Positions 19,078 to 62,921 of a stretch of 64,000 nucleotides of DNA are shown here, in pieces. The DNA comes from Candidatus Pacearchaeota archaeon. Lineage in GTDB: Archaea > Nanobdellota > Nanobdellia > Pacearchaeales > UBA284. The stretch covers positions 808 to 64,807 of the forward strand of contig JBNAVB010000001.1 in assembly GCA_049699715.1 (NCBI GenBank), written 5' to 3'. The position numbers and the translations under genes are program-made. The notes beneath the pieces were generated by a model that saw nothing but the letters and a program-made list of their open reading frames with translations, had not been told where the DNA came from and ran no database searches. Numbering within the stretch: position 1 is the first letter of the stretch; every line of letters starts with the position of its first letter.

Positions 19078-20535
<1,458 letters not shown>

Positions 20536-20729
20536 ATAAATTTTCTTTAAAAAAAGAAAATTTATATGGCAAATAAAATTAAAAAATCGGAGATAGTCGA
20601 TAGCGAGACTGCCTTTACAACAAATTTTTTAGGAAAGAAAAGTTAATTAAGGAAGCACCTAAAAAAATTTTATCAATAAAAAATCAAAAAATAAAAACTT
20701 TAAAAAGCTACAAGCTCTGAAAATAAGGA

Positions 20730-20838
20730 GGGCCTGTAGTTCAGCGGTAGAATGCCTCCCTTGCACGTGAGGGAAGTGTCCCTTCACAACTCTCACTAAG
20801 AACGGAGGAGGTCGTGGGTTCGATTCCCACCGGGTCCA
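20730..20838 (+). tRNA. tRNA-Ala(TGC) with a 37-nt intron after position 37; no encoded CCA
   Basis: Acceptor GGGCCTG/CGGGTCC with the G3:U70 alanine identity pair, anticodon loop CTTGCA|intron|C, T-arm GTGGGTTCGATTCCCAC. Intron spans about 20766..20802. Confidence 0.85.
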
Positions 20839-21193
20839 TAATTTTCTACTGCTCTACTGCATGACAATATACGAGAGAGAAATCATGTTCATCAGCAACG
20901 TCGGAAACGTTGCAATTCTTCAGATGAATCACAAAATATGACGCTGGTAAGTGTAACTTGCCGGCCGAGTTGATGCTTAGAAAATCTTTTAGGAAAAGAT
21001 TTCCCAAGAAAATGAAACTTTTCTGAGCGCCGAAAATCTTTGATTTTCGAGCGTATCAAAAGAAATCTTTCCTGAAAAGGCAAATGAGATATCATAGTAA
21101 GAAAGCACAACAACTAGACATAAGTCTTTTTCATCTTCGAAAAAGATTTATCAAAGTGGTTGGAAGCGTTAAGCTTGATTAATTTATTAAACT

Positions 21194-24078
21194 GCTAGAC
21201 GGATGACTTGGCTTAGATTGTGATGAAGGACGCGGCAAGCTGCGATAAGCTTGAGGGAGCCGCATGCAGGCTTTGATCTCAAGGTCTCCGAATCTGAAAC
21301 AGATTGTTCGAAGAGAACAATATTCTTTGAGAAAGCATACGCTGGGAATTGAAACATCTTAGTACCGGCAGGAAAAGAAAATAATAATGATTCCCTTATT
21401 AGCAGCGAGCGAAGAGGGAACAAGGCAAACCGAATCCGCTAGGGAAACTTAGCGGAGATGTGGAGTTGGCCGGGTTACACCTAAGGTCATTGAGTTGAAG
21501 TCTCCTGGAAAGGAGCGCCGTAGAGAGTGATAGCCTCGTAAACAGGATGATTATGGTGAGTGCCCGTGTCCAAGAGTAGCGCGTCCCGGTTAGGACGCGT
21601 GAATATGGTTCTACTAAGAACTAACTTTAAATATGAATCTAAGACCGATAGCGCACTAGTACCGTGAGGGAATGTTGAAAAGTACTTCTAGCGAAGAGTG
21701 CAAAGACCTGAAATCTAGCAGTTATAGTCAGTTACTGCTCTCTACGGAGAGTTGTAACATACGTTTTGGAAAACGGGCCAAGGAGTTGATGTGAGTGGCA
21801 AGGTTAAGTTGCTATGCAACGGAACCAAAGCGAAAGCGAATGTTCGTATCGCAAGAAAGGAACAGTGTATGAAAATGCATTAGTCACTAGCATCAGACCT
21901 GAAACCAGGTGATCTACTCGCGAGCAGGATGAAGCTTCCCTAACGGGGAGTGGAGGTCCGAACAAGTGCTATGGGCAAGTGCTTTGATGACTTGTGAGTA
22001 GGGGTGAAAAGCCAATCTAACCTGGCGATGGCTGGTTCCTGCTGAAATATACTTTAGTATAGCCTCTTGTTAGTTGGCTATCATGGTAGAGCGACGGATG
22101 GGACATGCAGGCAAGTTTTCTTGTCGGTGTCCTTTCCAACTCCGAATGTGGTAGCAACGCAGCAAGGGAAACAGGTGTGCGGGGTAAGCTTGTACACCGA
22201 AACCGGAACAACGGAGACTAGAGTTAAGGTCCCAAAATGTTAACTAAGTGCTTTTGAAAGGAGTCTTGATTCTGAGACAGTTGGGAGGTAGGCTCAGAGG
22301 CAGCCACCCTTTAAAGAAAGCGTAACAGCTCACCTATCGAGAATCAGGGCACTGAAGATTGACGGGGCTAAGTTAACTACCGAGACTCTTGTGTTTTTCC
22401 TTCGGGAAAAACAGGTAAGCAGGCGTGCTGTCTGGGCAGAAGCCTCTTCGTAAGAAGGGGTGGACCGGATAGTAACGAGAATCTTGGCATTAGTAGGATC
22501 ATACTTACGTGAGAGCCGTAAGGGTCGTAAGAGCTAGGGTTCCTCGACAATATCGATTAGTCGAGGGTTAGTCGATCCTAACTGTGTACTTAACTGATAC
22601 ACGGGAAAATGGGGGGCATGTTAATATTCATGCGCTGCCTAGCATCGTTAAAGTTTTCGAGGACACTTCGAGATAAACAGAGTGTATCTGCAAAGACATT
22701 TCTTGCAAGAAGATTGTGGAGTATCGTAATGATGAGAAACGATTGAATTGCGAGAACGAAAGTCTGTTGATTCTTGGAGTCCGTGAAAAGTCGAAAATGA
22801 AGATGTTAGGCAATCGTACCTAGAACTTGCACTGGTGCTCTTGCTGAGAAGGCAAAGATCTGCAAGCTTAAAGCTGGTAAGGGAATTCGGCATATTGGTC
22901 CTGTAGCTTCGGTAGAAGGGATGCCTATATTCGTGTTTAGAAATTCTTAGATGCGAAGGTAGGTTGCAATAACAAGGATCGCCCGACTGTTTATCAAAAA
23001 CGTAGCCAAGTGCTAGGCCGAAAGGCTTCGTACACTTGGTGAGACCTGCCCAGTCGCGGTGTTTAAAACTCCTTTTCAAGGGAGCTAAGACCCGTGAAAC
23101 GGCGGGCCTAACTGTGAGGCTCTTAAGGTAGCGTAATACCTTGTCGTCTGAATGGCGACTTGCATGAATGGTTTAACGAGGTGGTCACTGTCCCTACCAG
23201 CGAGCTTCCGAACCTCTCATCCTGGTGCAAAGACCAGGGACGTCTAGTGGGAAGCGAAGACCTTGTGGACCTTTACTGCAACTTGTAGTTGTTTTTTGTA
23301 ATGAAATGCATAGAGTAGCTAGGAGAGATGAAGCGTAGCTTTGGCGAGGCGGATCGAAAGTGTAACACTAGCTATTTTTTTACAAGAGACTCACTTGAAA
23401 AAGGACAGCTACTGGCGGGCAGTTTGGCTGGGGCGGCACCCTTCCGAAAAGATATCGGAAGGGCCCAATGGTGAGCTCAGCGTAGTTGGAAACTATGTGT
23501 AGAGTGCAGAGGCAAAAGCTCGCCTGACTGTGACTCGCAAAGAGAGAGTCGCAGATACGAAAGTAGGGCTCAGCGAACCTTGATGCTCCTTTAGTGGGAG
23601 CTCAATGTGACAGAAAAGGTACCCCAAGGATAACAGGCTTGTCGCACCCGATAGTCCATATTGACGGTGCGGTTTGGTACATCGCCGTCGGCTCTTCCTA
23701 TCCTGGCTGTGCACAAGCAGCCAAGGGTGTCGGGGTTCACGCATTAAAAGGGATCGTTAGCTGGGTTAAGAACGTCGCGAGACAGTTTGTTTGATATCTA
23801 CTAGACGTGTTGTTGCCTGAGTGGAAGAAGCAAGTAGTACGAGAGGAACCTTGCTTCGAAGCCTCTGGTTTAGCGGTTGTCCTTATCGGGCAGGCCGCGC
23901 AGCTACGCTTTGACTGATAAGAGCTGAAAGCATCTAAGCTCGAAGCAGCCCGCAAAAATAGGCAACTAAGGCCGTTGAAGAAAACAACGTTGATAGAGTT
24001 GGGGTGTAAGGCCAAAGGCAACGATGGTTTCAGCCCGCAACTACTAAAAGCCTCTTTTTAACAAGTAAGGCTTCCAAT
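21194..24078 (+). rRNA. 23S ribosomal RNA (ends approximate)
   Basis: 5' GGATGACTTGGCTTAG...GAAGGACGCGGCAAGCTGCGATAAGC; internal sarcin-ricin loop region AGTACGAGAGGAAC; 3' region GATAGAGTTGGGGTGTAAGG...ACTACTAA. Confidence 0.85.
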
Positions 24079-24151: not shown

Positions 24152-24472
24152 TTAGATGAACCTTCTAACTTTCTTAATCGTTCCTGAAACTCCTACACAT
24201 TCTAAATCTGTAAGAGTGAGAGAAGCTTTAACCTTATCAACCAATTTTGTAACAATGCTGATTATAGCATAATTTTTCCTGAGTTCTATAAAGAGCACTC
24301 CCGCTTTAGCATAGCCATAAATGCCGATGAAATCCAAGATTGCCTTGTCTATCTTCTCTTTCAACTCGTTTTCGTTCAGCACTTTTTTTGACTTGATGAC
24401 AAGATAATGCCTTTTCTCTCGCAATGTTGGCAAAAGTTTAAGTTTTTTCTCGATTGGTTTCTGTTTCTTCAT
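24152..24472 (-). CDS. RNase P protein component 2 (Pop5/Rnp2 homolog); start taken at an internal Met to avoid overlap
   Basis: LPTLREKRHYLV...GYAKAGVLFIE...LECVGVSGTIKKV parallels archaeal Pop5 (LPPTLRDKKRYIAF...LGTSGTLK). Confidence 0.6.
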   Translation of the reverse strand: MKKQKPIEKKLKLLPTLREKRHYLVIKSKKVLNENELKEKIDKAILDFIGIYGYAKAGVLFIELRKNYAIISIVTKLVDKVKASLTLTDLECVGVSGTIKKVRRFI

Positions 24473-24489
24473 TTTTTCTTTTTTTATTT

Positions 24490-24801
24490 TCACTCGGGCC
24501 CGCATTTGCCCTTGATGCAAGTGCAATTGCTAATTTTACAGTTATAGAGCGCTGTGCATATAAGCTGATTTTGTGGCGGGCAATCTTTTAGCTTGTCTTC
24601 ATAGACACTCGCCAAACCTCTAGGAACACATTGTTCTGTGCCTCCTGAATTGCAAGGGCAGCATGTTATCTGAACTTTTACACAATCGTTGTCTGTGAGA
24701 CACTCGGCTTGTGGCGCACATCCACTTGCGCCAACAACCGCGAGAAGTAAAAGAATAAATGATAAAAAAAGCACGATTGTTGAAAGTCTCATATTTATCA
24801 T
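24490..24801 (-). CDS. Small secreted cysteine-rich protein (signal peptide + 14 Cys)
   Basis: N-terminal hydrophobic signal (LSTIVLFLSFILLLLAVVGASG), then a Cys-dense 75-aa region (CxxxxxC..CCPC..C..C..C..C.C.C..C). Immediately downstream of the giant surface protein on the same strand. Confidence 0.45.
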   Translation of the reverse strand: MINMRLSTIVLFLSFILLLLAVVGASGCAPQAECLTDNDCVKVQITCCPCNSGGTEQCVPRGLASVYEDKLKDCPPQNQLICTALYNCKISNCTCIKGKCGPE

Positions 24802-24892
24802 CTGTTAATAAGAGCGAGAGGATTAAAAAAAGTTTCCCTTTTAATTGTTAAGATATGTGAAAAATGATTGAAAAGTGATGTTTGTCGGGCAA

Positions 24893-27800
24893 TCATGTCA
24901 TTGCTGCGCGGAATGCAGCTTCTATTGCTTCTTTAGGCCAACCTGCTTCCTGGAGCTTGGCTACGATTTCTTGTTTTGTCGCGCCCGTCGTTAAGGCATC
25001 GCGAATATAACTTGTAAGCTCAGGGTACGCCTCGGCTTTTGCTTGTGCTCCCGCCCCTTTCTTCGCCGAGGGGATTATGACAAATATGATGACTACAACT
25101 GCTATAGCCGCTATAACAACGCTAATGACCACATACACAAGCCATCCTATTGCCGGCTTTTCTTCTATTACATAAACTGAATTAAGGATCATATCAAGAT
25201 CAGCGCCAGTCCATCCGAACTGCTGAAGCTGCTGTTTCATCTCAGCTCTTGATGCGCCTTGCTGAGCTCTGGTCTGAACATATTCTGTAATAATACTTAT
25301 GTCACAAGTCCTCTGGGCTGATGGGATTGTTGAATAAGGATCGCTCGTGTTACATGTCGTGCTCATTAGATCACATTGTCTTGTCTGCGTGGCTTGTGGC
25401 CTGCATGGCAATGGCTGCCATTCGCTACAACTGTAATCATTTTCAGAACAAGGCAGCGCAGCTGCGCATGATTGTGTTTGGGTTATTGCTTTAAATTGAG
25501 GACAAGAAGCGGTTCCTATGTAAGTACAATTAACAATTCTTGTTTGGATTCCCCCAATGCATGAGCTCCAGTTTGAAATAACTGGCGCGTCAGTACAGTT
25601 ATAGAAAGTATCGTTGCAATCTGTTGGCGCGCCCGCAACTCCAACATAGAAAGGAGTTGAAACTTGATGAATTAAAGTTTCGTTGACAGGAACTTGAACA
25701 GGCTTGTAGCGCACACGAACTGTTAAAGAGTAAGTTCCATTCTGTGTCGGCGCCTTGAAATTGCCAAATATAGTTTTATTTAGTCTCACTGTGTAGATAT
25801 TGTTCCAATCGCGGCATTTGCATAATGCTGTATTGCATGAGTTACTTGAGGTGTCAAGACAAGCGGTATAGCCTGCATTATTGCCATAGCATGCATCATA
25901 CAATTGGATTATTTGTCCTTCGACACTTGCCTGGCAATATCCTTCTGTTCGATTCCATTTCTGGGTTTCTGATTGCGAAATGAAATTGCCTAGCTCGAGA
26001 GTGGCATTGGCGGTACAATTTTCCCAGCACTCTTGATCTTGAGGACAAGTTAGCTGCTCACCATAATATTTCCCAAAACCTGCTCCTGTAGCGCAGCAGT
26101 GCCCTTTTCTTGAGCATGCTGTCGAAGGTTCTTGGCTTCCATATTTCCAAAGTTCGACATTATCAAAATACACGCGTTGACCATAATAATTGTAGTTGTC
26201 TATCTTGCCATGCGATACAAGCCATATTTCTGTTATTGTATCTTCAGGACTTCCACCGTGCTGTGTCCAGTCATCAAACAAATTAGCCCCGTCATTCAAT
26301 ACTTTATCAGCTGGAGGAACCGTCTTATTCACGCAAGCATCTCCGTAAGGGCATGCCGATGCCGCCCCCCCTCCTAAATTATACCAGTAGTGCAGTGCTC
26401 TTTCAGCATTCTGAGAAGTCTTGCCTTTAACAATAATTTCAAATGCGTAGCCAGTTCCAGGTGTTGTTGCTGGATCTAAAGCTACGCTCCATTTCAATTG
26501 CTTTTCTGTTTGGAAATATAATTCTGGTAACTTTTCTTTTTTATTTTCTTCTTTAGGCAAATTTGGCAAATTCGATAACGTTACTGCTGCATCTCCTGAA
26601 GGAGCCGTAGCACATTCATCAGGCGAGTCAAAATAAATACAAATGCTTTTGCTTGCTGTAGCAATTCGATCATTGTAGGTGCCTATTACAGTTAGTGTTG
26701 TTCTGCCAGCAACTGTTGGTGTAAATTTCGATTTTCCATTAGACGTGATGTTAGCAAGTATGCCTTTAACTGGAGACTGAGCCCATGCAAATGTTGCTTG
26801 ATTTGTTACGTCTACGTTGTCTACTATCATAGAGGCATTAAAAATACTCACGTTTGAATTGCCCCATGCTGTTTTTGTGCCATTATTTTCATCAAATTTG
26901 AATTCAGCAACAAGCCCATTTCTTATATCTATGCCATTGTATCTTGCTGTTACTTCATCAGCAGAGAGTGCCCTAGTGTAAATCCTTACTTCATCAATTG
27001 TGCCGTTGAAATATTCTAAAATAAGATCATTTCCTATTATGCTCCAATTTATTGGAAGTGATGAAAAGCTTGTAAAGTTATCCGGGGTGCCATTTAAGTA
27101 TAAAGCCATATGTGTGCCATTCGATGTCAAAACAACGTGATACCATTGATTAATATTTAAACTAGTTTTACCGATAAGTGTATCGCCCCCCCAGTGAAAA
27201 AAAGATAATTTGTTTCCTTTAAGGAAAAAACCATAACGATTATTTTGTGCAACAATGGTACTATATTGATCTGGAGACCTAAATTTTAAAGGATATATCC
27301 AGGATTCTATAGTGTATTTATTAGTAATAGTAATCGGTCCAAAAACCACTTTAGACTCATTGGAATTTAAATTGAACTGCAAGGCATTTCCTTCTTTACC
27401 TGTTGTCCAGTTTGCTCCGGAAATTGTCCCATATTTAACTTTTATATTATCTCGGCCAGTAATTGTTACATATTGGGTTGGTTTTGTAAGTTCCTTAACT
27501 TTAAAAGCCCTTGTGCCAAGTGCTTGAACAACAGAGATGTTTGAATTAGTTTCAGATGAGATGGTTGAGTCTAAGAATAAAGCATTTTCAAAAAGGACAT
27601 CTCCAGTAGTGTTAACTACTTGAGACTCTATGCCGGCATTGCCCATATCAATGTTAGAAGCAAAGGTAAACCAGCCTGGGAACAATGCCGCATTGAATTT
27701 GCTATTTAAGATAACTTGCTTACAGTTTGCGCCTGCTTTCAAGCAGCAAGTTCCTTCTGGATCTGCATCAATCAAATTACATGTGCCATCACTATAATTG

Positions 27801-28183
27801 TGCCATGCTACAAGAGAATTGTCTGGGCAGATGTAGTGTGTGGAACAGTTTGGCAGGTTAGCTGAAACAAAAATGTCAATTTTTGTGGCTGCTGGCAATA
27901 TATCTTCTACATCCACTTGTAGAGAGATATTTCCTTTCAACCTTTCCGAGGCATTATACTGAATTTTTTCGAGCTGTATTGAAGAGAGTGCTTTGCCTGT
28001 AAGCTGCTCTGTGTTCTCTTCGGGAGCCTTGAATAAAATTATCACTGCAAGGAGAATTAATATTAAAAATAAACTGATTATGGCCTTCTCTAAAGTATTG
28101 TTCTGAGGTTGGTTCTGATATTGAGAAGCCCCTAGGGACTTAACTTTCGGCTTAACTTTTAATTTCTTTTTTAATGCCGCCAT
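24893..28183 (-). CDS. Giant (1096 aa) cell-surface protein: N-terminal signal anchor, LamG/ConA-like lectin domain, Cys-rich regions, C-terminal TM helix and short cytoplasmic tail; very many N-glycosylation sequons
   Basis: N-terminal helix IISLFLILILLAVIILF; LamG hallmark IDEVRIYTRALSADEV; over 30 N-x-S/T sequons; C-terminal TM IGWLVYVVISVVIAAIAVVVIIFVII followed by a 56-aa tail. Confidence 0.6.
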   Translation of the reverse strand: MAALKKKLKVKPKVKSLGASQYQNQPQNNTLEKAIISLFLILILLAVIILFKAPEENTEQLTGKALSSIQLEKIQYNASERLKGNISLQVDVEDILPAATKIDIFVSANLPNCSTHYICPDNSLVAWHNYSDGTCNLIDADPEGTCCLKAGANCKQVILNSKFNAALFPGWFTFASNIDMGNAGIESQVVNTTGDVLFENALFLDSTISSETNSNISVVQALGTRAFKVKELTKPTQYVTITGRDNIKVKYGTISGANWTTGKEGNALQFNLNSNESKVVFGPITITNKYTIESWIYPLKFRSPDQYSTIVAQNNRYGFFLKGNKLSFFHWGGDTLIGKTSLNINQWYHVVLTSNGTHMALYLNGTPDNFTSFSSLPINWSIIGNDLILEYFNGTIDEVRIYTRALSADEVTARYNGIDIRNGLVAEFKFDENNGTKTAWGNSNVSIFNASMIVDNVDVTNQATFAWAQSPVKGILANITSNGKSKFTPTVAGRTTLTVIGTYNDRIATASKSICIYFDSPDECATAPSGDAAVTLSNLPNLPKEENKKEKLPELYFQTEKQLKWSVALDPATTPGTGYAFEIIVKGKTSQNAERALHYWYNLGGGAASACPYGDACVNKTVPPADKVLNDGANLFDDWTQHGGSPEDTITEIWLVSHGKIDNYNYYGQRVYFDNVELWKYGSQEPSTACSRKGHCCATGAGFGKYYGEQLTCPQDQECWENCTANATLELGNFISQSETQKWNRTEGYCQASVEGQIIQLYDACYGNNAGYTACLDTSSNSCNTALCKCRDWNNIYTVRLNKTIFGNFKAPTQNGTYSLTVRVRYKPVQVPVNETLIHQVSTPFYVGVAGAPTDCNDTFYNCTDAPVISNWSSCIGGIQTRIVNCTYIGTASCPQFKAITQTQSCAAALPCSENDYSCSEWQPLPCRPQATQTRQCDLMSTTCNTSDPYSTIPSAQRTCDISIITEYVQTRAQQGASRAEMKQQLQQFGWTGADLDMILNSVYVIEEKPAIGWLVYVVISVVIAAIAVVVIIFVIIPSAKKGAGAQAKAEAYPELTSYIRDALTTGATKQEIVAKLQEAGWPKEAIEAAFRAAMT

Positions 28184-28364
28184 CTTCCCCTTTTATAATA
28201 AAGTGCGTTATAGTAAGGTGTCTATCTCCCTTTAAATACATTTCGTTGATAAAATAGTCAAAAAAAGGAGGCAAGATTTTTAATTAATAAAGAAGTTAAA
28301 AAGTAGCAAAGTAGCCAAAACCAGTTAAAGTAAGATTTAAAAAAACTCTTTGCTTTGTGGATAG

Positions 28365-30791
28365 ATGGTAAAAAAAGAGACAAAAGAGAAAGATATAGAA
28401 AAATCTAAGAGAAAGAAAAGTGATAAGGGAGGGGGGAATTTTAATTTTGACATCAGAGAGATAGAAAGGAAATGGCGAGATTACTGGGAAAAGGAGCGGG
28501 TCTACAGATTCGACGCGAAGAAGAAAATTGCTTTCTCTATTGACACGCCGCCACCAACGGTTTCAGGCAAGATGCATATCGGGCATGCTTTTTCTTATGC
28601 GCAACAAGATTTTATTGCAAGATTTCGAAGAATGTTTCATGGCAATATTTTTTATCCTTTCGGCACAGATGACAATGGGTTGCCAACCGAGCGACTTGTT
28701 GAGAAAATTAACAATGTAAAAAGCAAAAATATGTCACGAGCAGATTTCATTGATTTGTGTTTAAAAACTTTAGCCAAAACAAGAAAAGATTTCATACAGG
28801 ACTGGAAAGACTTGGCAATATCGTGCGACTATGACCTTTATTATTCAACTATCGATAAACACTGCCAAAGAATCAGCCAAAAATCGTTCATCGAGCTGTA
28901 CAAGAAAGGGCTAATTTACAAAGCCGAATTTCCAACAATCTTCTGCGTTGAATGCCAGACGCCTGTTGCACAAGCTGAACTTGAAGACAAGCAGGAACAA
29001 GCATTATTCACAACAATAGCTTTCCAAATCAAAGGTTCGAAATCGAGCGTCGATATAGCAACAACAAGGCCCGAATTTCTGGCTTCCTGCCTTGCAATTT
29101 TTGTAAATCCTAAAGATTCGCGATACAAGAAACTCGTTGGTAAAAAAGTTATCGTGCCGGTGTTTGGGCAAGAGGTTCCGATTCTTGAAGACGATTCAGC
29201 AGACATGACAAAAGGCACTGGGGCAATGATGATTTGTTCTTACGGAGACAAATATGATGTTGAAGCGATAAAGAGAAAGAAACTCAAGCCAAAAATTATT
29301 TTTAATAATGATGGCACGATGAACGAGTTTGGAGGAAAGTTCAAAGGAATGAAAATAAAAGCCGCGAGAGAAGCTATATTGAAAGAGCTTGAAGAGAAAA
29401 AGCTTATTGTCAAACAGGAGAAAATTATGCATTCCGTGAATGTGCATGACAAGTGCGGCACGCCTATCGAGTTTTTGACAACAAGGCAGTGGTTTATTAA
29501 AATCCTCGACAAGAAAAAAGAATTGATAGAGCAAGGAAGAAAAATTAAATGGTTTCCAAATTTTATGGTAAAGCGCTATGAAAACTGGATTAACGGCTTG
29601 GAGTGGGACTGGAGTGTTTCAAGAGAGAGGCACTTTGGGGTGCCTATTCCAGTGTGGCAGTGCAAAAAATGTAAAGAGGTTATTTTGCCTGATGAAGAGC
29701 AGCTTCCAGTCGACCCATTGAAAGATAAGCCTTCAGGGAAATGCAAATGCGGTTCAAGTGACTTCGAAGCTGAGCAAGATGTTCTTGACACTTGGGCTAC
29801 AAGCTCATTGACACCTGAACTTGCTTTATCGTTAATAACAAAAAAGCCAGAAAAATTGTTGCCTATGGACTTAAGGCCGCAAGCTCACGACATTATAAGG
29901 ACATGGGCTTTCTATACTATTGTTAAGGTGTTTTATCATTACAACAAGATTCCTTGGGAAAATATAATGATATCTGGCTTCGTTACACTTGGCGGAGAGA
30001 AAATGTCAAAATCAAAAGGGATTATAATAGAGCCTCATAATATTATGGAAAAATTCGGAACAGATGCCCTTAGATTCTGGGCGGCAAGTGCGAAATTAGG
30101 AGAGGATTTGGAATATCAGGAGAAAGATTTGCTCACAGGGCAGAGAACCATCACAAAATTATGGAATGCCGCAAAATTTGTCTCGCTTAATTTAAAAAAT
30201 GTGCCTAAACCAAAAATTTTAGAGGTATTTGACTTGTGGCTTCTCTCGAAATTAAACAAGGCTGTAAAAGAATGTACCGAGGCATTTGAAAATTATGAGT
30301 ATTCCAAGGCGAAGGCAGCGACAGAACATTTTTTTTGGAAAGTTTTTTGCGACAACTATCTCGAGATTATCAAAAAAAGGATTTATCAAGGAAACGCACA
30401 AGAGAAAATTTCAGCGCGATATACTTTATACAATGCTTTTTTAACCATCCTCAAACTTTTCGCCCCTATAATGCCACATATAACAGAAGAATTGTATCAG
30501 CAATATTTCAAAACAAATGAGAAAGTCAAGAGTATTCATCTATGCAAATGGCCGAAGCATGATGAAGGATTTATTGACGATAAAATTGAAAAAGTGGGTG
30601 ATATGGCTTGTGAGATAATCAATAATGTGAGACAATTCAAGTCAAAAAATCAGAAATCACTGAAAACAGAGGTTATTTTAACAATTGAGAAGGAAAAACT
30701 CGGAGAATTGAAGCCCATTCTTGAGGATTTAAAAGCCGTAACCCGCGCAAGAGAGATAAAAGAGGGGAAATTCTCAATCCAATTGCTGTAG
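28365..30791 (+). CDS. valS: Class Ia aminoacyl-tRNA synthetase, most likely valyl-tRNA synthetase
   Basis: HIGH region TPPPTVSGKMHIGHA (cf. ValRS PPPNVTG.LH.GHA), CP1 editing motif IATTRPEF (TTRPET), KMSKSKG, and a Cys4 knuckle CKKC...CKC. 808 aa is short for ValRS, so Leu or Ile cannot be fully excluded by eye. Confidence 0.6.
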   Translation: MVKKETKEKDIEKSKRKKSDKGGGNFNFDIREIERKWRDYWEKERVYRFDAKKKIAFSIDTPPPTVSGKMHIGHAFSYAQQDFIARFRRMFHGNIFYPFGTDDNGLPTERLVEKINNVKSKNMSRADFIDLCLKTLAKTRKDFIQDWKDLAISCDYDLYYSTIDKHCQRISQKSFIELYKKGLIYKAEFPTIFCVECQTPVAQAELEDKQEQALFTTIAFQIKGSKSSVDIATTRPEFLASCLAIFVNPKDSRYKKLVGKKVIVPVFGQEVPILEDDSADMTKGTGAMMICSYGDKYDVEAIKRKKLKPKIIFNNDGTMNEFGGKFKGMKIKAAREAILKELEEKKLIVKQEKIMHSVNVHDKCGTPIEFLTTRQWFIKILDKKKELIEQGRKIKWFPNFMVKRYENWINGLEWDWSVSRERHFGVPIPVWQCKKCKEVILPDEEQLPVDPLKDKPSGKCKCGSSDFEAEQDVLDTWATSSLTPELALSLITKKPEKLLPMDLRPQAHDIIRTWAFYTIVKVFYHYNKIPWENIMISGFVTLGGEKMSKSKGIIIEPHNIMEKFGTDALRFWAASAKLGEDLEYQEKDLLTGQRTITKLWNAAKFVSLNLKNVPKPKILEVFDLWLLSKLNKAVKECTEAFENYEYSKAKAATEHFFWKVFCDNYLEIIKKRIYQGNAQEKISARYTLYNAFLTILKLFAPIMPHITEELYQQYFKTNEKVKSIHLCKWPKHDEGFIDDKIEKVGDMACEIINNVRQFKSKNQKSLKTEVILTIEKEKLGELKPILEDLKAVTRAREIKEGKFSIQLL

Positions 30792-47463: not shown

Positions 47464-47587
47464 GCCGCGATGGCCCAATGGTAAGGCGCAGGTTTGCTAA
47501 AGAATCTTTTTAGAAAAAAGATTCTATCAAAAAATGCAAACAACCTGTTTCCGAAAGGATATCTGGGTTCAATTCCCAGTCGCGGCG
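47464..47587 (+). tRNA. tRNA-Ser(GCT) with a ~42-nt intron at the canonical 37/38 site and a long variable arm
   Basis: Acceptor GCCGCGA/TCGCGGC, anticodon stem CAGGT/ACCTG with loop TTGCTA|intron|A, variable-arm hairpin TTCCGAAAGGA, T-arm CTGGGTTCAATTCCCAG. Confidence 0.75.
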
Positions 47588-52049: not shown

Positions 52050-54194
52050 ATGACAAAGATAACCAAGACTTTTTTGATTTTACCCTTGTTTTTCATATCG
52101 CTATTACTTATCAACTTGGCATCTGCCACGATTATCTTGTCAAATGTCAACCCCATATACAATCTTGGCGACATGATAAAGCTCGAAGCTAAAGTTTCAA
52201 GGGCAGAGGCATTTTCTGGCTTCTTCCGCATAGGACTCTTCTGCAATAACACAGAAACTTTAATGTACTTCTCGCCAATAGATCTTGTCAAGAACAAAGA
52301 AAAGGCTATCACAGTTAATTTTCCTGTGGCCAAAACAGGATCTTGTTATATATCCGCGACACTTGAAGATAATTATAACACAAAAATAGAGGAAACTAAA
52401 ACTCCAACAGTTTCTCTTAGTAATAAAATTAATATCGTGCTAAATGTTAATCAAAATGAGTTCGAACCTAAAGATAAATTAGAGCTCAGTGGCACAGCAA
52501 CTAAAGAAAATGTCCAGGCAGCAAGTGGAATAGCAACAATAACTCTCAGTCAAGGTAAAGATTATAGCTCAAGTGTCCCGAATGGAAAGATTTCTTTCTC
52601 GCTAGATTTGCCTGCAGACATAGCTCCGGGCCAGCATCAAATAACAGTAAGCATCAAAGACAATAACAACAATCAAGGCACTGCAGCTATAAATATAACA
52701 ATACTTTCTGTCCCAACAACTTTAACAATAGAGACAAACAATGATAGTTTCATCCCTAATTCTTTGCTTATGATAACCCCCAAACTTCTTGATCAGGCAA
52801 ACAACACTTTAGATGCCACGATAACAACGAAACTTTCAAGACAAGTTTCGCTCATAAAAAACGAGAAGCTTCTCGAAGAGTTGATAGCAAGTGGCAACAA
52901 TACTGTTTATAGATTCACAGAATTCAGCCCGCCCGGTGATTATATAATCGAAGCTTCGACAAGCACATCAAAAGGTGAGTTTAATTCAAAGAAAATTTTG
53001 AAAGTTGAGTATTACGAAAAAATCAAAGTCGATTTACAAGGCGACACTTTGTACATTTCAAACATTGGGAACGTGCCTTTCAAACGCGCTATAGAAATTG
53101 AGTTTATGATAGAGAACCAAAGCACAAAAAAAGTTATTGACTTGGATTTAAAGATAAATGAGAACGCGACTTTCAAGCTCGAAGCGCCAAAAGGAACCTA
53201 CACAATAAAAGTGAATACAGGTTCTGAGATTCTTGAATTCAAAAGCGTGCCATTGACAGGCTATGTTGTAGCAACAATCGAGTTGAACAAGTCACAAAAA
53301 TTAGATTTTAGAGGGTTGGTAGGCTTGGTAGCACTGGCTGTTGTATTGATTGTTATCATGATTCTCTTAAGAACAAGAAGATCACACAAGGAAAAAAAGG
53401 GGATAATCAAGATGATGAAAAATAATGGCCAAGAATTTCCTATAGCTGCACACGCAACAACTGGAAATCTGATAGCATCCGCTAAGCTAGACCACTTTGC
53501 TTCGGGCGATGTGACACTGAAGAAGATATTCTTAAGGCACTCCTCAAAACTCGCAGCGGACAAGATTGTCTCGACAATAGTCTATGGGACAAAACAAGAA
53601 ATAACAGCGTTGTTCGTTCATTTGGGCGTTGATTCCTTAAACGAAATTAAGAAAAAAGATTCCATGACCTACGCAAAAATTTTAGATGAATACTTCAAGG
53701 AAATCACACAGAAAATTAAAGAACATCAGGGAGTCGCGGATTTATATGATAACAACCTGATTGTCTTGTTCAATGTAATCAAGCAATACAGGCATGACAT
53801 TGCCGCGCTGAAGACAGCAGAAGCAATTAAACAAATCACAGAGGAATTGAATAGAGCGTTGGCGCCAAAGGGCGTTAAGATTGGAGTGTGCGCAGGCATC
53901 AATACTGGCTTGGCAAACGTCACAAACATTCAAAATGGCACAGTAAAATATACTGCTATAGGCAATACAACTTCCTTGGCAAGGGCATTACAAGCAAAAG
54001 CGTGCGCAGGCGAGATATTGTTCACAGAAAAAGTTTATGACCGCGTTGCTAATGTAATCAAAGCAAGGAAGATGCAACCACATTACTTGAGCGAGCAACA
54101 AGCAATTAATATATACTCATTACAAGACGGTATGAAAGCAGAGCTACGAAACAAGAATCAGTGGTACATCAGGCGAGCTCTAGGAAAAGGTTAA
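52050..54194 (+). CDS. Receptor-like membrane protein: signal peptide, ~420-aa extracellular repeat region, one TM helix, cytoplasmic class III nucleotidyl-cyclase-like domain
   Basis: Signal LILPLFFISLLLINLASA; TM LVGLVALAVVLIVIMILL; cytoplasmic GVKIGVCAGINTGLANVTNIQNGTVKYTAIGNTTSLARALQAKACAGEILFTEKVYDRV parallels the cyclase-homology core (IGIHTGPVVAGVIG...Y.V.GDTVNTASRME..A.PG.I.VSE.TY). Confidence 0.5.
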   Translation: MTKITKTFLILPLFFISLLLINLASATIILSNVNPIYNLGDMIKLEAKVSRAEAFSGFFRIGLFCNNTETLMYFSPIDLVKNKEKAITVNFPVAKTGSCYISATLEDNYNTKIEETKTPTVSLSNKINIVLNVNQNEFEPKDKLELSGTATKENVQAASGIATITLSQGKDYSSSVPNGKISFSLDLPADIAPGQHQITVSIKDNNNNQGTAAINITILSVPTTLTIETNNDSFIPNSLLMITPKLLDQANNTLDATITTKLSRQVSLIKNEKLLEELIASGNNTVYRFTEFSPPGDYIIEASTSTSKGEFNSKKILKVEYYEKIKVDLQGDTLYISNIGNVPFKRAIEIEFMIENQSTKKVIDLDLKINENATFKLEAPKGTYTIKVNTGSEILEFKSVPLTGYVVATIELNKSQKLDFRGLVGLVALAVVLIVIMILLRTRRSHKEKKGIIKMMKNNGQEFPIAAHATTGNLIASAKLDHFASGDVTLKKIFLRHSSKLAADKIVSTIVYGTKQEITALFVHLGVDSLNEIKKKDSMTYAKILDEYFKEITQKIKEHQGVADLYDNNLIVLFNVIKQYRHDIAALKTAEAIKQITEELNRALAPKGVKIGVCAGINTGLANVTNIQNGTVKYTAIGNTTSLARALQAKACAGEILFTEKVYDRVANVIKARKMQPHYLSEQQAINIYSLQDGMKAELRNKNQWYIRRALGKG

Positions 54195-56397: not shown

Positions 56398-59300
56398 TTA
56401 TTGACTATATTTATTATTCCCATTTAATTCTGTTATTTCGACCACTTTAGCAAGATCAGTGACTTTGTCATCAGGCCTGAGCCTTATTATTCTAACGCCC
56501 TGAGTAGCTCTGCCCATTACTCTAATATCCTTACAAGGGACTCTTATGACCATTCCTTTAGATGTCGTAACAATCCCAGAATCCTTGTCGTTTACAGACA
56601 CAGTTGTAACAACTTTGCCTGTTTTGTCTGAGATTTTCAAGTTGATTACGCCTTTGCATGCTCGGCCTGTAAGCCTGTAATCCTCAATTGCGCTTCTTTT
56701 GCCGTAGCCTTTTTCTGTGATTGTGAGAATCGTGCTTTTCGGGTCATCAAGAACCTCGAGAGAGACAACTTCATCACCTTTCTCGAGCTTTATTCCTGTC
56801 ACTCCATAACTCGCACGGCCCATTGTTCGAACTTCATCAGAATTGAACCTTATTGCCTGGCCCTCTTTTGTTACAAGAATTACTTCCTGCTTCTCTTTTA
56901 TTGGCTTGACATCAATGACAACATCCGAACCATCTAGAGGCAAATTAATAACACGAACCCCGGAAGCCCTTGGCTTGCTTAGGAGCGAGAGATTCATTTT
57001 TTTAACTTGCCCTTTCTTTGTGACAATCATCAAAAAGTCTTTGAACTCTTTAACAGCCATCACGCTCTGTATTGTTTCATCTTTCAAATTTAAAATGTTG
57101 ATTAATGCCTTGCCTTTGCTATATTTCTCGACAGCCGGAATATAATACGCTTTAAGCCAGTACACTCGGCCTTTGTTTGTGAAAAATAATAAGTAATCAT
57201 GAGTTGAGCAAGTTATTATTTGTTTCACGAAGTCGCCTGTTGCGAGGTCAGAACCAATGACACCCTTACCGCCGCGCTTCTGCTCCTTATAATCCTTGAC
57301 GTCAATCCTTTTACAGTATCCTTTGTCTGTGATTGTTATAACAACATCTTTCTTGCTGATTATGTCTTTTTCCTGGATTTCAGCGATTCTTTGTAAAATT
57401 TGTGTTCTTCGGGCATCGCCATATTTCCTCTTTAGCTCTGAAACTTCTTTCTTGATGACATTCAAGATTTCCTTGCCGCTAGAGAGAATTTTCTCAAGCT
57501 CTTTAATCAATTCTCTCAATTTCTTTTCCTCATCTTTGAGCTTGTCTTGCTCCAAGTTAGTCAGGCTGCTGAGCTTCATGTCAAGGATTGCCTGCGCTTG
57601 CTTGCCAGTCAACGAGAACTTTTTTAAAAGTGACTCATAAGCTTCGGTTGTATTCTTGCTCCCCTTTATTAATTTGACAACAGCATCAATGTCCTTGAGC
57701 GCAATTAACAATCCTTGGACTATCTCCCTTCGCTCCTGGGCTTTCTTCAGTTCGAATTTTGTTCTTTTTGTAACAATAACCTCGCGATATTTGACATATT
57801 CCTCAATCAAGTTCTTCAGATTTAATTGCTTTGGATGCCCTTTCACGAGAGCAATCATGTTTACGTCAAAATTGTCCTGGAGCCTGGTGAATTTGTAAAG
57901 CCTGTTGAGCGTGAACTTGTAATCTGCACCTTTTCTTAATTCTATGACAATACGCACTTTTCCTTTGGCACTTTCATCGCGCAGATCCCACACGTCAGGG
58001 AGCTTCTTCTCCTGGATTAATTTCGCAATGTCTTTGACGAGCTCGGCCTTATTAAGCATGTAAGGGATTTCTGTGATAATAATGCTTGTTCTGCCTTTGT
58101 GTTCTTCTGTCGTGGTCTTTCCTCTTAAGATGATGCGGCCTTTGCCTGATTTATAAATCTCCAAGAAGTTCGCGTTTGCTTGGCCCCCTGTCGGGAAGTC
58201 AGGGCCGATTATTATTTCTGAAAGTTTTTCTATAGTTATATCTGGATTATTAATGTAAGCATTGATAGCGTCACAAACTTCGCCCAGGTTGTGCGGCGGC
58301 AAATTCGTAGCCATGCCAACTGCGATGCCTGTTGCGCCGTTGATTAGTAGATTTGGAAGTTTCCCGGGCAGAGTTTCTGGCTCTTCGAGTGAATTGTCAA
58401 AGTTTTGCAAGAACTTGACAGTTTCTTTGTCAATATCCTCGAGAAGCTCAGCTGATATTGCAGCTAGCTTTGCTTCCGTGTATCTCATTGCTGCTGGCGA
58501 GTCTCCATCCATTGAGCCGAAGTTCCCTTGCCCATGAACTAAAGGATAACGCAACGAAAAATCCTGGGCCATTCTCACGAGTGCGTCATAAATTGCCATG
58601 TCGCCATGAGGATGGAATTTGCCCATACAATTGTGAGAACGCATTCCATTTGCCAAAAATTCATGCTCTTTCTCAACCTGGATATCGTAAGTGATTTCTG
58701 GTTTTGCTCTCTCTACTTTTTTTACTTCAACAAAAAAGAAATCATTTTCTAGAATTGGTTTTAATTTTGCGGCCAACGGAGAACCGATTCTCTTAAGTTT
58801 TTCTAAAATATTTAGTTTCTTGATAGTGCTTTTGTATATTTTTATTTTGTTTTTCAAGCCTTTATAATATCTAATTTTTGTTCCATTTTCATATTTGATT
58901 CCTAATCTGAATTTTTTTCCATTGACATCTTTATACCAGCCTCCCCCAAGATGTTTTTCTGAAAATTCAGAAAATATTGCGCTACCAAAGTAGGGAAGGA
59001 TATCAAATTGTGAAGGATTTACTTTTGTTTTTATTTTCAAGAGCCTTTCCTTTTTTTGCTCATTGGACAAGTTAAGGTTATCTTTTAGAGATTGTATACT
59101 GCTTCCACAGATTTCTAGAGAGTATGTTTCGAAATTAGGTTTTATTATTCTTCCCTTGTATGAATGATTTTTCTTTTTGTTTCTGTACTTCCTAGAAAAT
59201 ATTCCTAACGAGAACAGCAACGTTTGCAAGCTATCAATAAACTTTTCAGATATTGATGTGATGTTGATTACTTTTCTATTTTTATGCACAAAACCATCTC

Positions 59301-60237
59301 CATCTATAATACCTGAAAGAAATGCAAAAATAACAGATTTTGGCGATTTTGATATTGTTTCTGGAACTTTAATGTTGTATGCTTTTTTATCCATAATATC
59401 AAATAAAGACAAAAATCTTTTTGAATAATCTGTGCTGTTCAATCTAATTAAATAACTGTTGTTTTTAATACAAATATTTTCATTAGTGTCGAATTCTTTT
59501 TGGAATATTTTTTGTATTTTATTAATTACACTTTTACAATTATTCTGAATTGATAGCCTCAAATACTCTTTTTTTCTGTCTATCCATCCATCAGACAAAA
59601 ACATTCCAAGAAGATAAGCAAGGTTTTCATTGATAACAATTCCATTCCTTTTAACATATTTATTTATCTTTGGATATGTTCCTTGGAGTACCAAATAAAC
59701 TCCCTTTTTCAATTCAGAGGCCTTCTTCCATTCAAATTTGAGATCTTTTGTAAGAACCATATACATTTGCCCTTTAGTAGAAGTGTTAGAAGAGCCATTT
59801 TTTAGTGTGACTTCAACTAGCTCTTGCTTGGGCATAATGTATAATTTGGTTATTTTTCTTATCCCGTTCGAAGTGAATACCCTGTCTCCTTTTTTTAATT
59901 TTTGAATAGGAATAAGCCCTTTTGGTGTAGAGACTAGTGTATCTTTTACAAAACATTCACCTACGATTCTAGCACTTTTCTTTGTCTGCCCTTTCTGCAA
60001 GCCCATCAAATCCATTGAATACAAGATTCTACGTTGAACAGGCTTCAATCCATCTTCGACTGCAGGCAATGCTCTCGAGACTATGACACTCATGGCATAA
60101 TCAATGTAAGCTTTTTTCATCTCGTCTGAGATTTCTGAATCAATCTGCCCTTTTTCCTTTTCCTCTCCCATTTCTTCCCCCTCTTCTGTCTCTTCCTTCT
60201 TTGTTTCTTTTTCTTTCTTCTCTTCTTTTTCGGCCAT
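56398..60237 (-). CDS. gyrA: DNA gyrase subunit A interrupted in-frame by a large intein
   Basis: Extein: ...KSARIVGE | [39 protein letters not shown] (GyrA active-site region), long C-terminal beta-pinwheel. Removing residues 95-536 restores a ~837-aa GyrA. Confidence 0.85.
58630..59955 (-). mobile_element. GyrA intein (~442 aa) with embedded LAGLIDADG homing-endonuclease domain
   Basis: Begins with Cys directly after ARIVGE, ends ...GMRSHN followed by extein +1 Cys. Internal motifs [14 protein letters not shown] and [12 protein letters not shown]; inserted where canonical GyrA reads ARIVGDVMGKYHPHGD. Confidence 0.75.
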
Positions 60238-60995: not shown

Positions 60996-62921
60996 TTAAA
61001 CGTCGAGTATTGCCTCCTTCGCATGTTCCTCAATGAAGGCGCGTCTAGGAGCAACATCATCGCCCATAAGCATCTGGAATGTGGTGTCGGCTTCTACAGC
61101 ATCTTCTATAGTAACTCTTTTTATCTTTCGTGTGTTGGGGTTCATTGTTGTTTCCCATAGCTGTTGTGGATTCATCTCTCCTAGACCTTTGAACCTTGTT
61201 ACGTTTGCATTGCCCAATTTGTCAAGAACCCTCTTCAATGCTCCGTCTGAATAAACATAATGATCTTTTTTCTTTCGGATTTTATACAAAGGTGGCACTG
61301 CAACCCATATGTGTCCGTTTTCAATGAGCGGACGCATAAACCTGAAGAAAAACGTCAAGAGCAAAGTTTTGATATGCTGGCCGTCGACATCTGCATCAGT
61401 CATTATTATTATTTTAGAATAACGCAGCTTTTCTATATTGAAATCTTCTCCTACGCCTGTGCCTATTACAGTTATCAAGTTTGAAATTTCCTCGTTTGAG
61501 AAAACTTTTGTCGGCGCGGCTTTTTCTACATTCAAAATTTTCCCCTTCAAGGGCAGCACAGCTTGGATTTCTTTGTTTCTCGCCTGTTTTGCGCTTCCTC
61601 CAGCGCTCTCTCCCTCAACGATGTAAAGCTCGGTTTCTTCTTTCTTCGAGCTAGAACAATCTGCGAGCTTTCCAGGCAAGCCACTGAAGCCAAAAGCACT
61701 TTTCCTTCTTACAAGCTCTTTGGCTTTCTTCGCAGCTTCTCTTGCTTTCGCGGCTTCGCTTGCCTTTGTAGCAATTTTCTTGGCGATTTGAGGATTCTCT
61801 TCAAACATCTCTGACAAGCAAGAAGTTACAACAGAGTCAACATAACCTTTTACTTCACTGTTGCCAAGCTTTGTTTTGGTTTGGCCTTCGAACTGGGGGT
61901 TTTTTATCTTGATGCTAACGATAGCTGTTAAGCCTTCTCTAACATCATCTCCTGTGAGAGAGCCAGACTTTATTATGCCTTGTTTCTGGGCATAATCATT
62001 GATGACTCTTGTCAAAGCAGTTTTGAAACCAATAATATGCGTTCCGCCTTCGATTGTGTTAATTGTGTTGACAAAGCCAAAAATATTTTCTTGATAACCG
62101 GTGTTGTATTGAATTGCGACTTCGACAATTGTATGATCTGCCTCTTTTCTGAAATAAATAGGCTTGTGAAGCGGTTCTTTAGTTCTGTTAAGCCACTTTA
62201 CAAATTCTTGGAGGCCCCCATCATAGACAAATTCTTCGCGCTTTTCTTTTTCTCCCCTCTTATCTTCAAGGATTATCCTTAGACCTGCATTTAAAAACGC
62301 TAACTCGCGGAACCTTGTGGCTAAAAGCGCGAAATCAAGTTCAGTAGTTGAAAAAATTGACTCGTCTGGATAAAAAGTTACCTTAGTTCCTGTCAAGCTT
62401 TTATCGCATGAGCCTATAATTTTGACTTCATGCAATGGATTGCCTATTTTATAGCTTTGCATGTATATCTTGCCATCGCGCTTGACTTCAACTATCATTT
62501 TTTTTGACAGCGCTGCAACAACACTGATACCGACACCATGCAGCCCCCCAGAAATCGCATAAGCTTTGTTGTCAAACTTGCCTCCAGCGTGCAATTTTGT
62601 GACAATAATTTCCATGGCAGATTTCTTGTAAATAGGATGTATATCCACAGGGATTCCACGACCGTTATCTTCGACTGTGACGCTTCCGTCTTTGTTGAGC
62701 GTTACTCTTATGGCATTGCAAACTCCAGCCAGGCACTCGTCAACGGCATTATCAACTATCTCATACACGAGATGATGCAAACCTTCCTTACCTGTAGAGC
62801 CTATATACATCGCTGGCCTTTTCCTAACTCCCTCCAATCCTTCAAGAACCTTGATGCTTTCGGCTGTATATTTCTGTTTTTCTTCCTTGCTTTGTTGTAT
62901 TTCTTTTCCTTCGCCAGACAT
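60996..62921 (-). CDS. gyrB: DNA gyrase subunit B
   Basis: GHKL ATPase N-box (LHHLVYEIVDNAVDE), GLHGVGISVV, TOPRIM ELYIVEGESAGGSAKQ, C-terminal MGDDVAPRRAFIEE. Confidence 0.9.
   Translation of the reverse strand: MSGEGKEIQQSKEEKQKYTAESIKVLEGLEGVRKRPAMYIGSTGKEGLHHLVYEIVDNAVDECLAGVCNAIRVTLNKDGSVTVEDNGRGIPVDIHPIYKKSAMEIIVTKLHAGGKFDNKAYAISGGLHGVGISVVAALSKKMIVEVKRDGKIYMQSYKIGNPLHEVKIIGSCDKSLTGTKVTFYPDESIFSTTELDFALLATRFRELAFLNAGLRIILEDKRGEKEKREEFVYDGGLQEFVKWLNRTKEPLHKPIYFRKEADHTIVEVAIQYNTGYQENIFGFVNTINTIEGGTHIIGFKTALTRVINDYAQKQGIIKSGSLTGDDVREGLTAIVSIKIKNPQFEGQTKTKLGNSEVKGYVDSVVTSCLSEMFEENPQIAKKIATKASEAAKAREAAKKAKELVRRKSAFGFSGLPGKLADCSSSKKEETELYIVEGESAGGSAKQARNKEIQAVLPLKGKILNVEKAAPTKVFSNEEISNLITVIGTGVGEDFNIEKLRYSKIIIMTDADVDGQHIKTLLLTFFFRFMRPLIENGHIWVAVPPLYKIRKKKDHYVYSDGALKRVLDKLGNANVTRFKGLGEMNPQQLWETTMNPNTRKIKRVTIEDAVEADTTFQMLMGDDVAPRRAFIEEHAKEAILDV

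Follow-up and report, generated by a model that had tools for sequence, protein, structure and literature searches.

A 64,000-nucleotide (nt) stretch of a Candidatus Pacearchaeota genome (GenBank assembly GCA_049699715.1, contig JBNAVB010000001.1, positions 808 to 64,807; hereafter the window) encodes, between the rRNA operon and valS, a protein of 1096 amino acids (aa) with a LamG domain (the large protein) and, on the same strand, a 103-aa Cys-rich protein (the small protein). The question raised by this locus is whether the large protein is an accessory, strain-specific lectin, as proposed in a first-pass annotation made from the sequence alone, or a stable component of the cell envelope. 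Gene order, divergence and domain architecture point to the second answer: the large protein would be this genome's orthologue of an envelope glycoprotein that is conserved in Pacearchaeota-type DPANN archaea yet diversifies rapidly, and it is moderately probable that this glycoprotein functions in surface recognition or adhesion, with a base near the membrane and a docking tail in the cytoplasm that are both conserved, and a tip that binds ligands and can be exchanged.

Gene order and divergence at the valS-Pop5 locus

The genes of the locus and their immediate neighbors are listed below in window coordinates; P numbers denote related proteins and L numbers related loci.

19078-24065: archaeal 16S-tRNA-23S operon
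24152..24526, (-) strand: Pop5-like open reading frame (ORF), RNase P subunit Pop5/Rpp14; likely gene extent 24152..24472
24490..24801, (-) strand: small gene, 103 aa, signal peptide and 13-Cys mature part (ORF listing; 17 homologues, aligned)
24893..28183, (-) strand: large gene, 1096 aa, LamG-bearing predicted surface glycoprotein of the scaffold family described below (ORF listing)
28365..30791, (+) strand: valS, divergent from the large gene, conserved neighbor (ORF listing)

The order valS(-), large gene(+), small gene(+), Pop5(+) recurs in L002, L003/L004, L005, L006, L007/L008, L012 and L015, with large-protein identity of 35% in L012 and 31% in L015; L001 contains the large gene, the small gene and Pop5, and in L002 the small ORF is present but simply uncalled. 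Altogether, the large gene was found in the syntenic position in the window and in L001-L008, L012, L015-L020, L022, L025 and L029. A tRNA-synt_1 neighbor is encoded in L002, L005-L008, L012, L014 and L015, and beyond valS, genes for eRF1, ScpB and PIN are often present, as in the window. Deviations from this order include L014, where valS, the large gene and Pop5 are retained and the small gene is missing; L013, the most distant locus (25%), in which L16 is located upstream and is followed by the large gene, a gene for a transmembrane (TM) protein, the small gene and Pop5; and L011, in which the downstream side differs. With two exceptions, the related contigs examined preserve the synteny of the gene and its neighbors.

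A scan of the small-protein profile over one genome per species yielded 28 loci, nine of which contain a scaffold-family gene adjoining the small gene and Pop5; valS is located upstream in eight of these nine, as determined with hidden Markov models (HMMs), and the set includes the complete Pacearchaeota chromosome CP061211.1. The preservation of the locus order in most related contigs and in nine species genomes contradicts the initial impression that the gene stands out as accessory: among related genomes, it is the middle of the protein that varies and not the presence of the gene. The simpler elements of the first-pass annotation, namely the three ORFs (large, small and Pop5-like, all on the (-) strand) and their placement with the rRNA operon and Pop5 on one side and valS on the other, agree with the coordinates. 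The identical large protein is present in the NCBI database as 'MAG: LamG domain-containing protein [Candidatus Pacearchaeota archaeon]' (MAG, metagenome-assembled genome), and the small protein is listed there as a hypothetical protein of the same organism; given this entry for the large protein and the existence of orthologues, the large ORF is a called gene and not a chance ORF.

Within this stable context, the large protein diverges faster than the products of the surrounding genes. Between the window and L006, identity is 90% for eRF1, 80% for valS, 80% for Pop5, 72% for the small protein and 45% for the large protein; the respective values for L007 are 88%, 64%, 91%, 77% and 38%. Across the compared genomes, the identity ranges are 38-61% (large protein), 70-77% (small protein), 78-91% (Pop5) and 88-90% (eRF1). 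In Nanoarchaeota, surface proteins have been found to show the highest non-synonymous single-nucleotide polymorphism densities and to be encoded by the most polymorphic genes in populations (PMC6142677).

The large protein is also a mosaic. Sliding-window identity and informative sites show that residues ~5-175 are closer to P0003 (76% vs 53% for P0002), residues ~180-665 are closer to P0002, which alone shares LamG (68% vs 46% for P0003), and residues ~681-1096 are again closer to P0003 (70% vs 57% for P0002). The breakpoints lie near residues 180 and 665, and the three blocks deviate in opposite directions (Fisher p 3e-4, 5e-6 and 6e-5), which implies that the ancestry of the central cassette differs from that of the flanks.

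Architecture of the large protein and its relatives

The domains of the large protein are given below from the N-terminus to the C-terminus (AF2, AlphaFold2; pLDDT, predicted local distance difference test score).

28028..28183, (-) strand: N-terminal segment and TM1; residues 1-32 Lys-rich, 33-52 TM1 (hydropathy, charge)
27473..28015, (-) strand: N-domain, residues 57-237, beta, 6 Cys (alignments, HMM)
26843..27472, (-) strand: LamG/ConA-like insertion, residues 238-447 (Pfam PF13385 and alignment)
26624..26842, (-) strand: Ig-like beta-sandwich, residues 448-520 (low-confidence whole-protein AF2 model)
26117..26521, (-) strand: jelly-roll-like beta-sandwich, residues 555-689, AFEVIVKG...LHYWY...GQRVYFDNVEL (AF2 core model)
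25634..26116, (-) strand: cysA and cysB, residues 690-765 and 766-850 (invariant Cys columns; AF2 pLDDT 85-91)
25301..25633, (-) strand: two Cys-rich stalk repeats, residues 851-961, W-x-C...W-S-x-C...Q-T-R-x-C (alignment, tsrA/tsrB HMMs)
25166..25300, (-) strand: juxtamembrane three-helix domain, residues 962-1006, predicted extracellular (AF2 pLDDT 93-96)
25079..25156, (-) strand: TM2, residues 1010-1035 (hydropathy; helix 469-491 of the core model)
24896..25027, (-) strand: predicted cytoplasmic three-helix tail, residues 1053-1096, YPELTSYI-DAL--GATKQEI-AKLQEAGWPK-AIE (AF2 pLDDT 90-92)

The LamG domain noticed at first pass is confirmed by the Pfam family Laminin_G_3 (PF13385), which matches residues 284-411 (window 26951-27334, close to the original estimate of ~26940..27316) with E=1.5e-24 and 87.3 bits vs a cut-off of 27.6, over positions 14-150 of the 151-position profile; sequence matches of this region in the PDB are weak (5hon and 4qvs, E ~0.015). 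In the alignment of close relatives, residues ~238-447 are present in the large protein and P0002 only and missing from P0003-P0007. LamG was found in 3 of the 36 aligned family members and in none of the eight syntenic orthologues from species-representative genomes, and other family members bear Big_2, CARDB, NPCBM_assoc or Flg_new_2 domains (Pfam) instead. LamG is an optional insertion and does not define the family. The LamG segment alone also matches LamG of virion proteins in PHROG (8510, 3545 and 14220; E 6e-14 to 6e-8). A viral origin of the gene was rejected given that these matches are confined to LamG and that no viral relatives were found among IMG/VR contigs. No PADLOC match to a defence system was obtained, and a target of a diversity-generating retroelement was rejected as well, with only A/T-rich chance repeats in the 64 kb and no reverse transcriptase among the scanned ORFs.

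What defines the family is the scaffold around such insertions. Close relatives were collected by a word-indexed search and comprise P0002, which is similar over the full length (55% identity) and contains LamG, P0003-P0006, with 41-60% identity across ~59% of the query and without LamG, and the partial P0007; an exhaustive profile search for the wider family retrieved 228 cluster representatives at E<1e-3 and 40 clusters at <1e-30. In the 36 members that were aligned, the C-terminal core spans 497-592 aa and the part preceding it 229-675 aa. No Pfam family was detected for the ~540-aa core in scans of 7 and 36 members, and every sub-HMM of the scaffold (N-domain, cysA, cysB, stalk and tail) matches the large protein. 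Within the window, an HMM scan located the N-domain, jelly-roll, stalk-repeat, three-helix and tail modules in this gene only. The N-domain piece is common to many other DPANN surface proteins, and its HMM matches all 12 of 12 distant relatives (1e-15 to 1e-23). In these distant relatives, the order is N-domain, cysA, variable insert, cysB, three repeats, TM and tail, whereas in the large protein the N-domain and cysA flank the variable insert. Given that the insert site differs between relatives, the family behaves like a scaffold that is split at certain points to take up variable modules.

Two AF2 runs were made, one for the whole protein on a seven-sequence alignment and the other for the core (residues 545-1096) on 36 sequences. 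The whole-protein model (pLDDT 43) is unusable for LamG. The core model has a pLDDT of 81.6 and a predicted template modeling score (pTM) of 0.39, a value at which single domains are reliable but their mutual arrangement is not; a Foldseek search with this model found no PDB or BFVD structure at E<=0.001. The Ig-like region is modeled as all-beta at pLDDT ~60, with weak Big_2 matches in relatives (best E 5.8e-4). The jelly-roll-like domain reaches pLDDT 80-94; its fold resembles CFAP20-like and CBM16/22 jelly rolls only weakly (E>=0.08), and it has zero Pfam matches.

The HMMs of the stalk repeats, tsrA and tsrB, cross-match each other's units, two of which are present in the large protein and three in relatives; the units are modeled with short strands, and pLDDT rises from 53-74 in the first to 88-93 in the second. 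An assignment to thrombospondin type-1 repeats was rejected, with no TSP_1 match at E<=1 (7 members) or E<=0.01 (36 members). A profile of the stalk alignment had 0 matches at E<=10 among PDB sequences, and the core model showed a weak Foldseek match to a phage 'TSP1 repeat' protein (E=0.047, prob 0.35). The stalk is like thrombospondin repeats in its motif and layout, without belonging to that family.

Conservation across the family is highest in the tail, which is near-identical in all 36 members including those with 25-30% overall identity, and the unit of repeats, TM and tail is found on many other proteins of 56-1360 aa. Tail domains also occur in tandem: three copies follow a TM in P0199 (358 aa), and six copies end P0183 (833 aa), a long Lys/Glu/Arg-rich coiled-coil protein. 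These tandem arrays suggest a cytoplasmic protein-protein interaction module, and P0183 and P0199 hint at a cytoplasmic scaffold able to bind or mimic the tails of surface proteins. The tail and the juxtamembrane domain are homologous to each other (BLASTP 1e-5; reciprocal HMM matches 1e-3 and 2.5e-6). No natural PDB relative of the tail was found, its profile matching only de novo designed helical proteins; a UBA-like identity was rejected, with Rad23 UBA at E ~0.6 in the PDB search and RecX_HTH1 under the cut-off. The 45-residue tail profile gave zero matches in a large database, which reflects the word-index limit.

The first-pass annotation placed the protein at the cell surface, with an N-terminal signal anchor and a C-terminal TM, and several features agree with this placement. 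Hydropathy reveals two strongly hydrophobic 19-residue windows, ~residues 33-52 and 1010-1035, the latter (TM2) with a peak of up to 3.6. Both are flanked by positive charge that would remain inside: residues 1-32 are Lys-rich (pI 10.2), and the stretch ~1036-1052 after TM2 is basic (K-K...K). Around TM1, L31-E32-K33, F39, L50-F51 and P54 are invariant or nearly so in the family alignments; given that such conservation is unusual in cleaved signal peptides, TM1 is probably retained as an uncleaved signal anchor. Judging from charge and TM1 conservation, both termini would be inside. The large protein contains 30 N-x-S/T sequons vs 12.4 +/- 3.1 in composition-preserving shuffles (z ~6), a density of 27.4 per 1000 aa vs 5.1 per 1000 in 35 other window ORFs (~5x), and this enrichment is limited to the predicted ectodomain, which contains 29 of the sequons; the remaining one, at N28, precedes TM1. 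The protein has 34 Cys residues, in line with the Cys-rich segments recognized earlier, and the Cys number is even in 33 of 36 family members, which fits full disulfide pairing. Two earlier descriptions had to be adjusted: the enrichment in sequons stands, but their number is exactly 30 rather than above it, and the cytoplasmic tail exists but is not merely short, forming a conserved folded three-helix domain.

The small Cys-rich protein

Members of the small-protein family (~100 aa) consist of a signal peptide with a near-invariant Gly-Cys at its end and the motif DCVKVQ-TCCPC-xGG...YNCKI-xC-C, which in the window takes the form DCVKVQ-TCCPCN-GG...ALYNCKI-NC-C. The size and the signal peptide are as initially described, and the number of Cys residues is 13, not 14. 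No Pfam, NCBIfam or PDB match was found for this protein, and it shows no similarity to the large protein past hydrophobic helices. The signal peptide ends in A-S-G-C in the window, in L-G-G-C in L012 and in a lipobox-like A-A-S-C in a Bdellovibrionales homologue (lipobox pattern used: [LVI][ASTVI][GAS]-C at the signal-peptide end). The odd Cys count, the L-G-G-C of L012 and the bacterial lipobox together suggest that the small protein may be tethered by its first Cys. The bacterial homologues, from a Bdellovibrionales MAG and a Spirochaetes MAG (L042 6884-7234; L043 6875-7246), are 35-36% identical and share the DC...TCCPC-SGG motif.

In at least 12 other genomes labeled Nanoarchaeota or Woesearchaeota, the small gene is found in the arrangement RNase J-like(-), small gene, large gene, Pop5, with the RNase J-like gene present in many of them and Pop5 usually (L024, L026, L028, L030, L033, L034 and L036-L041; e.g., L037 6962-10428). 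The large gene in these loci encodes an 876-1188-aa Peptidase_S8 subtilase that is membrane-anchored, has an I9 propeptide as well as Ig-like domains and reaches 41-61 sequons per 1000 aa. Homology of these subtilases to the scaffold family was rejected because hhalign matches the TM only. The subtilase loci indicate that it is Pop5 and some large surface glycoprotein to which the small gene is most consistently linked. The functional link between the large and small proteins of the window is positional only; the small protein could have to do with the subtilase, perhaps inhibiting it or serving as its co-factor; alternatively, the site could be a hotspot for surface-protein genes.

The identity of Pop5 is supported by matches to Pfam PF01900 (E=7.4e-5) and to the NCBIfam RNase P component 2 (E=4.7e-9), and its syntenic position is shared by all related loci. 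Its start is likely the ATG at 24472, 17 nt past the small-gene stop. The two genes are separated by this 17-nt gap in the window (24472-24492) and overlap by 4 nt in L002 (7579-7582) and by 16 nt in L015 (10783-10798); such tight packing suggests that a secreted Cys-rich protein and an RNase P subunit are co-transcribed, for no evident functional reason. By eye, A/T-rich TATA-like boxes are seen in 24802-24892 and, 5' of the large gene, in 28184-28260, and T-runs follow the large-gene stop. One box, cttttttaat, is centred ~26 nt 5' of the small-gene ATG, and from its position, the small-gene transcript is possibly leaderless.

Possible functions and further features of the window

An adhesion or recognition role of the large protein is plausible. 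The N-terminal signal anchor and the C-terminal TM would hold the protein in the membrane with both ends in the cytoplasm, leaving ~950 intervening residues outside the cell, where they would be disulfide-bonded and N-glycosylated. The conserved base would comprise the N-domain, cysA, cysB, two stalk units, the juxtamembrane three-helix domain, TM2 and the tail, and the exchangeable tip, in this genome, LamG together with the Ig-like and jelly-roll domains, which would have been acquired by recombination from a lineage other than that of the flanks. Anchoring of both ends would place the mid-chain residues at the membrane-distal tip, and this would explain why the variability is central and not terminal. 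The tip would most likely bind glycans or proteins on a partner cell or substrate, the tail may couple the protein to a cytoplasmic partner common to many DPANN surface proteins, and the small protein, inherited along with it, would reside outside the cytoplasm, where its N-terminal Cys possibly serves as a tether.

A more elaborate and decidedly tentative proposal joins these elements into one system. The valS-Pop5 locus would harbor a doubly anchored display scaffold with swappable tips (LamG, Ig, jelly-roll, CARDB and others) recombined in from other lineages, which could serve as a determinant of host range or partner recognition analogous to phage tail-fibre or variable-antigen systems; the YPEL...AGWP tail, common to hundreds of DPANN surface proteins, would be a cytoplasmic docking module that gathers them at a contact site; and the small protein, itself tethered, would serve as co-factor to any large surface protein encoded at the locus.

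Several observations weigh against a recognition or adhesion protein of this design. The LamG region has pLDDT ~25 in the whole-protein model, because only two informative sequences cover this stretch. The double anchor is a prediction from hydropathy, charge and conservation, and signal-peptide cleavage could remove the N-terminal helix. The presence of one three-helix copy on the predicted outside of the membrane and of the other inside is odd for a single function, the mosaicism is deduced from three sequences at 55-63% identity, and a position this conserved could mark a structural envelope protein instead of an adhesin.

The last point leads to the alternative that the large protein is the main, S-layer-like structural glycoprotein of the envelope, its core and TM building the coat, the variable part being an antigenic decoration and the small protein a possible second subunit. 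We regard this as rather unlikely, although the locus is fixed amid housekeeping genes across the lineage, and the size of 120 kDa, the acidic ectodomain (pI 5.1), the dense sequons and the C-terminal TM resemble archaeal S-layer glycoproteins (PMC5744192), with no S-layer protein known for Pacearchaeota (PMC5744192). No S-layer family, however, is among the Pfam and NCBIfam matches. The 34 Cys residues and the folded, near-invariant cytoplasmic tail are atypical for S-layer proteins. The occurrence of the same anchor cassette and scaffold pieces on many proteins argues for a multi-member adhesin-like superfamily and not for one coat protein, and ectodomain identity down to 38% between close genomes is hard to reconcile with lattice contacts. 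If true, the S-layer explanation would matter also, because none is known for this lineage. A receptor, with ligand sensing by the variable ectodomain and signaling to a cytoplasmic partner through the conserved tail, is improbable: it would fit a tail that is the most conserved part of the protein, folded (pLDDT about 90) and, as expected for an interaction module, present in tandem on the cytoplasmic coiled-coil P0183, but neither an enzymatic nor a known signaling domain was detected with Pfam and NCBIfam, the tail lacks a natural structural or sequence relative, and a homologous three-helix copy is on the predicted outside of the membrane.

The original proposal of a strain-specific accessory lectin adhesin that is inserted between core genes and works with the small protein now has little probability. 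Its LamG domain is real and rare in relatives, and the small gene is indeed adjacent and co-oriented; against these stand the synteny in all but two related contigs with variability of the central cassette alone, the G+C content of the large gene (0.36-0.44, inside the window range), and the occurrence of the small protein in bacteria and, next to an unrelated subtilase, in other lineages. The least credible candidate, and a very improbable one, is a membrane fusogen or cytoplasmic-bridge protein that connects to a host cell: a Cys-rich, membrane-anchored ectodomain with predicted glycosylation in a lineage suspected of cell-cell contact would suit it, but there is no class I-III fusogen match at E<=0.001 in the PDB or BFVD, matches to rhabdovirus G have prob <=0.04, and no fusion-loop-like feature was identified.

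The recognition or adhesion glycoprotein that we favor shares traits with several known systems. LamG/ConA-like proteins have been proposed as DPANN adhesion proteins, with arCOG07813 in Undinarchaeales as an example (PMC7414124), so that LamG-bearing putative DPANN adhesins are an already known kind. The arCOG07813 proteins, too, are DPANN proteins that are secreted or membrane-bound and contain a module of the Laminin_G_3 type, a likeness at the level of the LamG HMM; in the large protein, LamG is optional and resides inside a different conserved scaffold, most members of which lack it. The archaeal S-layer glycoproteins of Haloferax volcanii and Nanoarchaeum equitans (PMC5744192) are likewise large, acidic and sequon-heavy, with an N-terminal export signal, a C-terminal membrane anchor and one conserved gene per genome locus; unlike them, the large protein has no family match, is Cys-rich, probably retains its N-terminal anchor, and has a folded tail and a recombining modular ectodomain. 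Phage LamG virion or receptor-binding proteins (PHROG 8510, 3545 and 14220) have modular, swappable binding domains as well, but the match to them is in the LamG segment only and the context here is one of cellular housekeeping genes. The Peptidase_S8 surface proteins (L024-L041) resemble the large protein in size, signal peptide, C-terminal TM, basic tail, sequons and the adjoining small gene and Pop5; they are non-homologous to it and contain a catalytic subtilase domain that it lacks. Eukaryotic thrombospondin-repeat (TSR) type I adhesins (thrombospondin, Plasmodium TRAP) combine a ligand-binding head, a W-S-x-W-like Cys-rich stalk adjoining the membrane, one TM and a short, conserved cytoplasmic tail in which a Trp is essential. 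The layout of the large protein resembles theirs, although its TSP_1 HMM and PDB profile comparisons were negative.

We found no description of the scaffold family in the literature that we searched; the family, its fixed locus, the cassette mosaicism and the shared three-helix tail appear to be undescribed so far. Partner recognition and attachment in DPANN archaea are largely obscure, and no Pacearchaeota envelope protein has been characterized so far. The large protein is a conserved, easily located candidate between valS and Pop5, the base of which could be used for antibodies, tagging and assignment in cryo-electron tomography and the variable tip of which could account for partner specificity among closely related strains; the ~540-aa core and the three-helix tail, moreover, are two undescribed modules widespread in DPANN proteomes. 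The reality of the gene, its domains, synteny, mosaicism and rate of evolution are shown by comparison, and topology, glycosylation, the binding of ligands and partners and the role of the tail are inferred; the locus is a solid lead and not a discovery.

Elsewhere in the window, gyrA (56398-60237, (-) strand) is split by an intein that contains a LAGLIDADG homing endonuclease (Intein_splicing, LAGLIDADG_3, Hom_end), and gyrB is located at 60996-62921. Two tRNA matches, 20730-20838 (109 nt) and 47464-47587 (124 nt), one of which is in the 16S-23S spacer, exceed the 71-position model, and this excess length suggests intron-containing tRNA genes. A receptor-like layout is seen in a 714-aa protein encoded at 52050-54194 ((+) strand): behind a signal peptide lies a beta-rich ectodomain bearing 11 sequons, then a TM at residues ~425-445 and a cytoplasmic part weakly matching adenylate/guanylate cyclases (E=5.9e-4, under the cut-off). 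The ORF 63087-63953 ((-) strand), which probably continues past the window end, has a Cys content of 17%, with repeats of the CGNGICD...NCP-DC type, 8 sequons (z=6.6), a TM at the C-terminus and a tail rich in Lys, and is another Cys-rich surface protein, of a different family.

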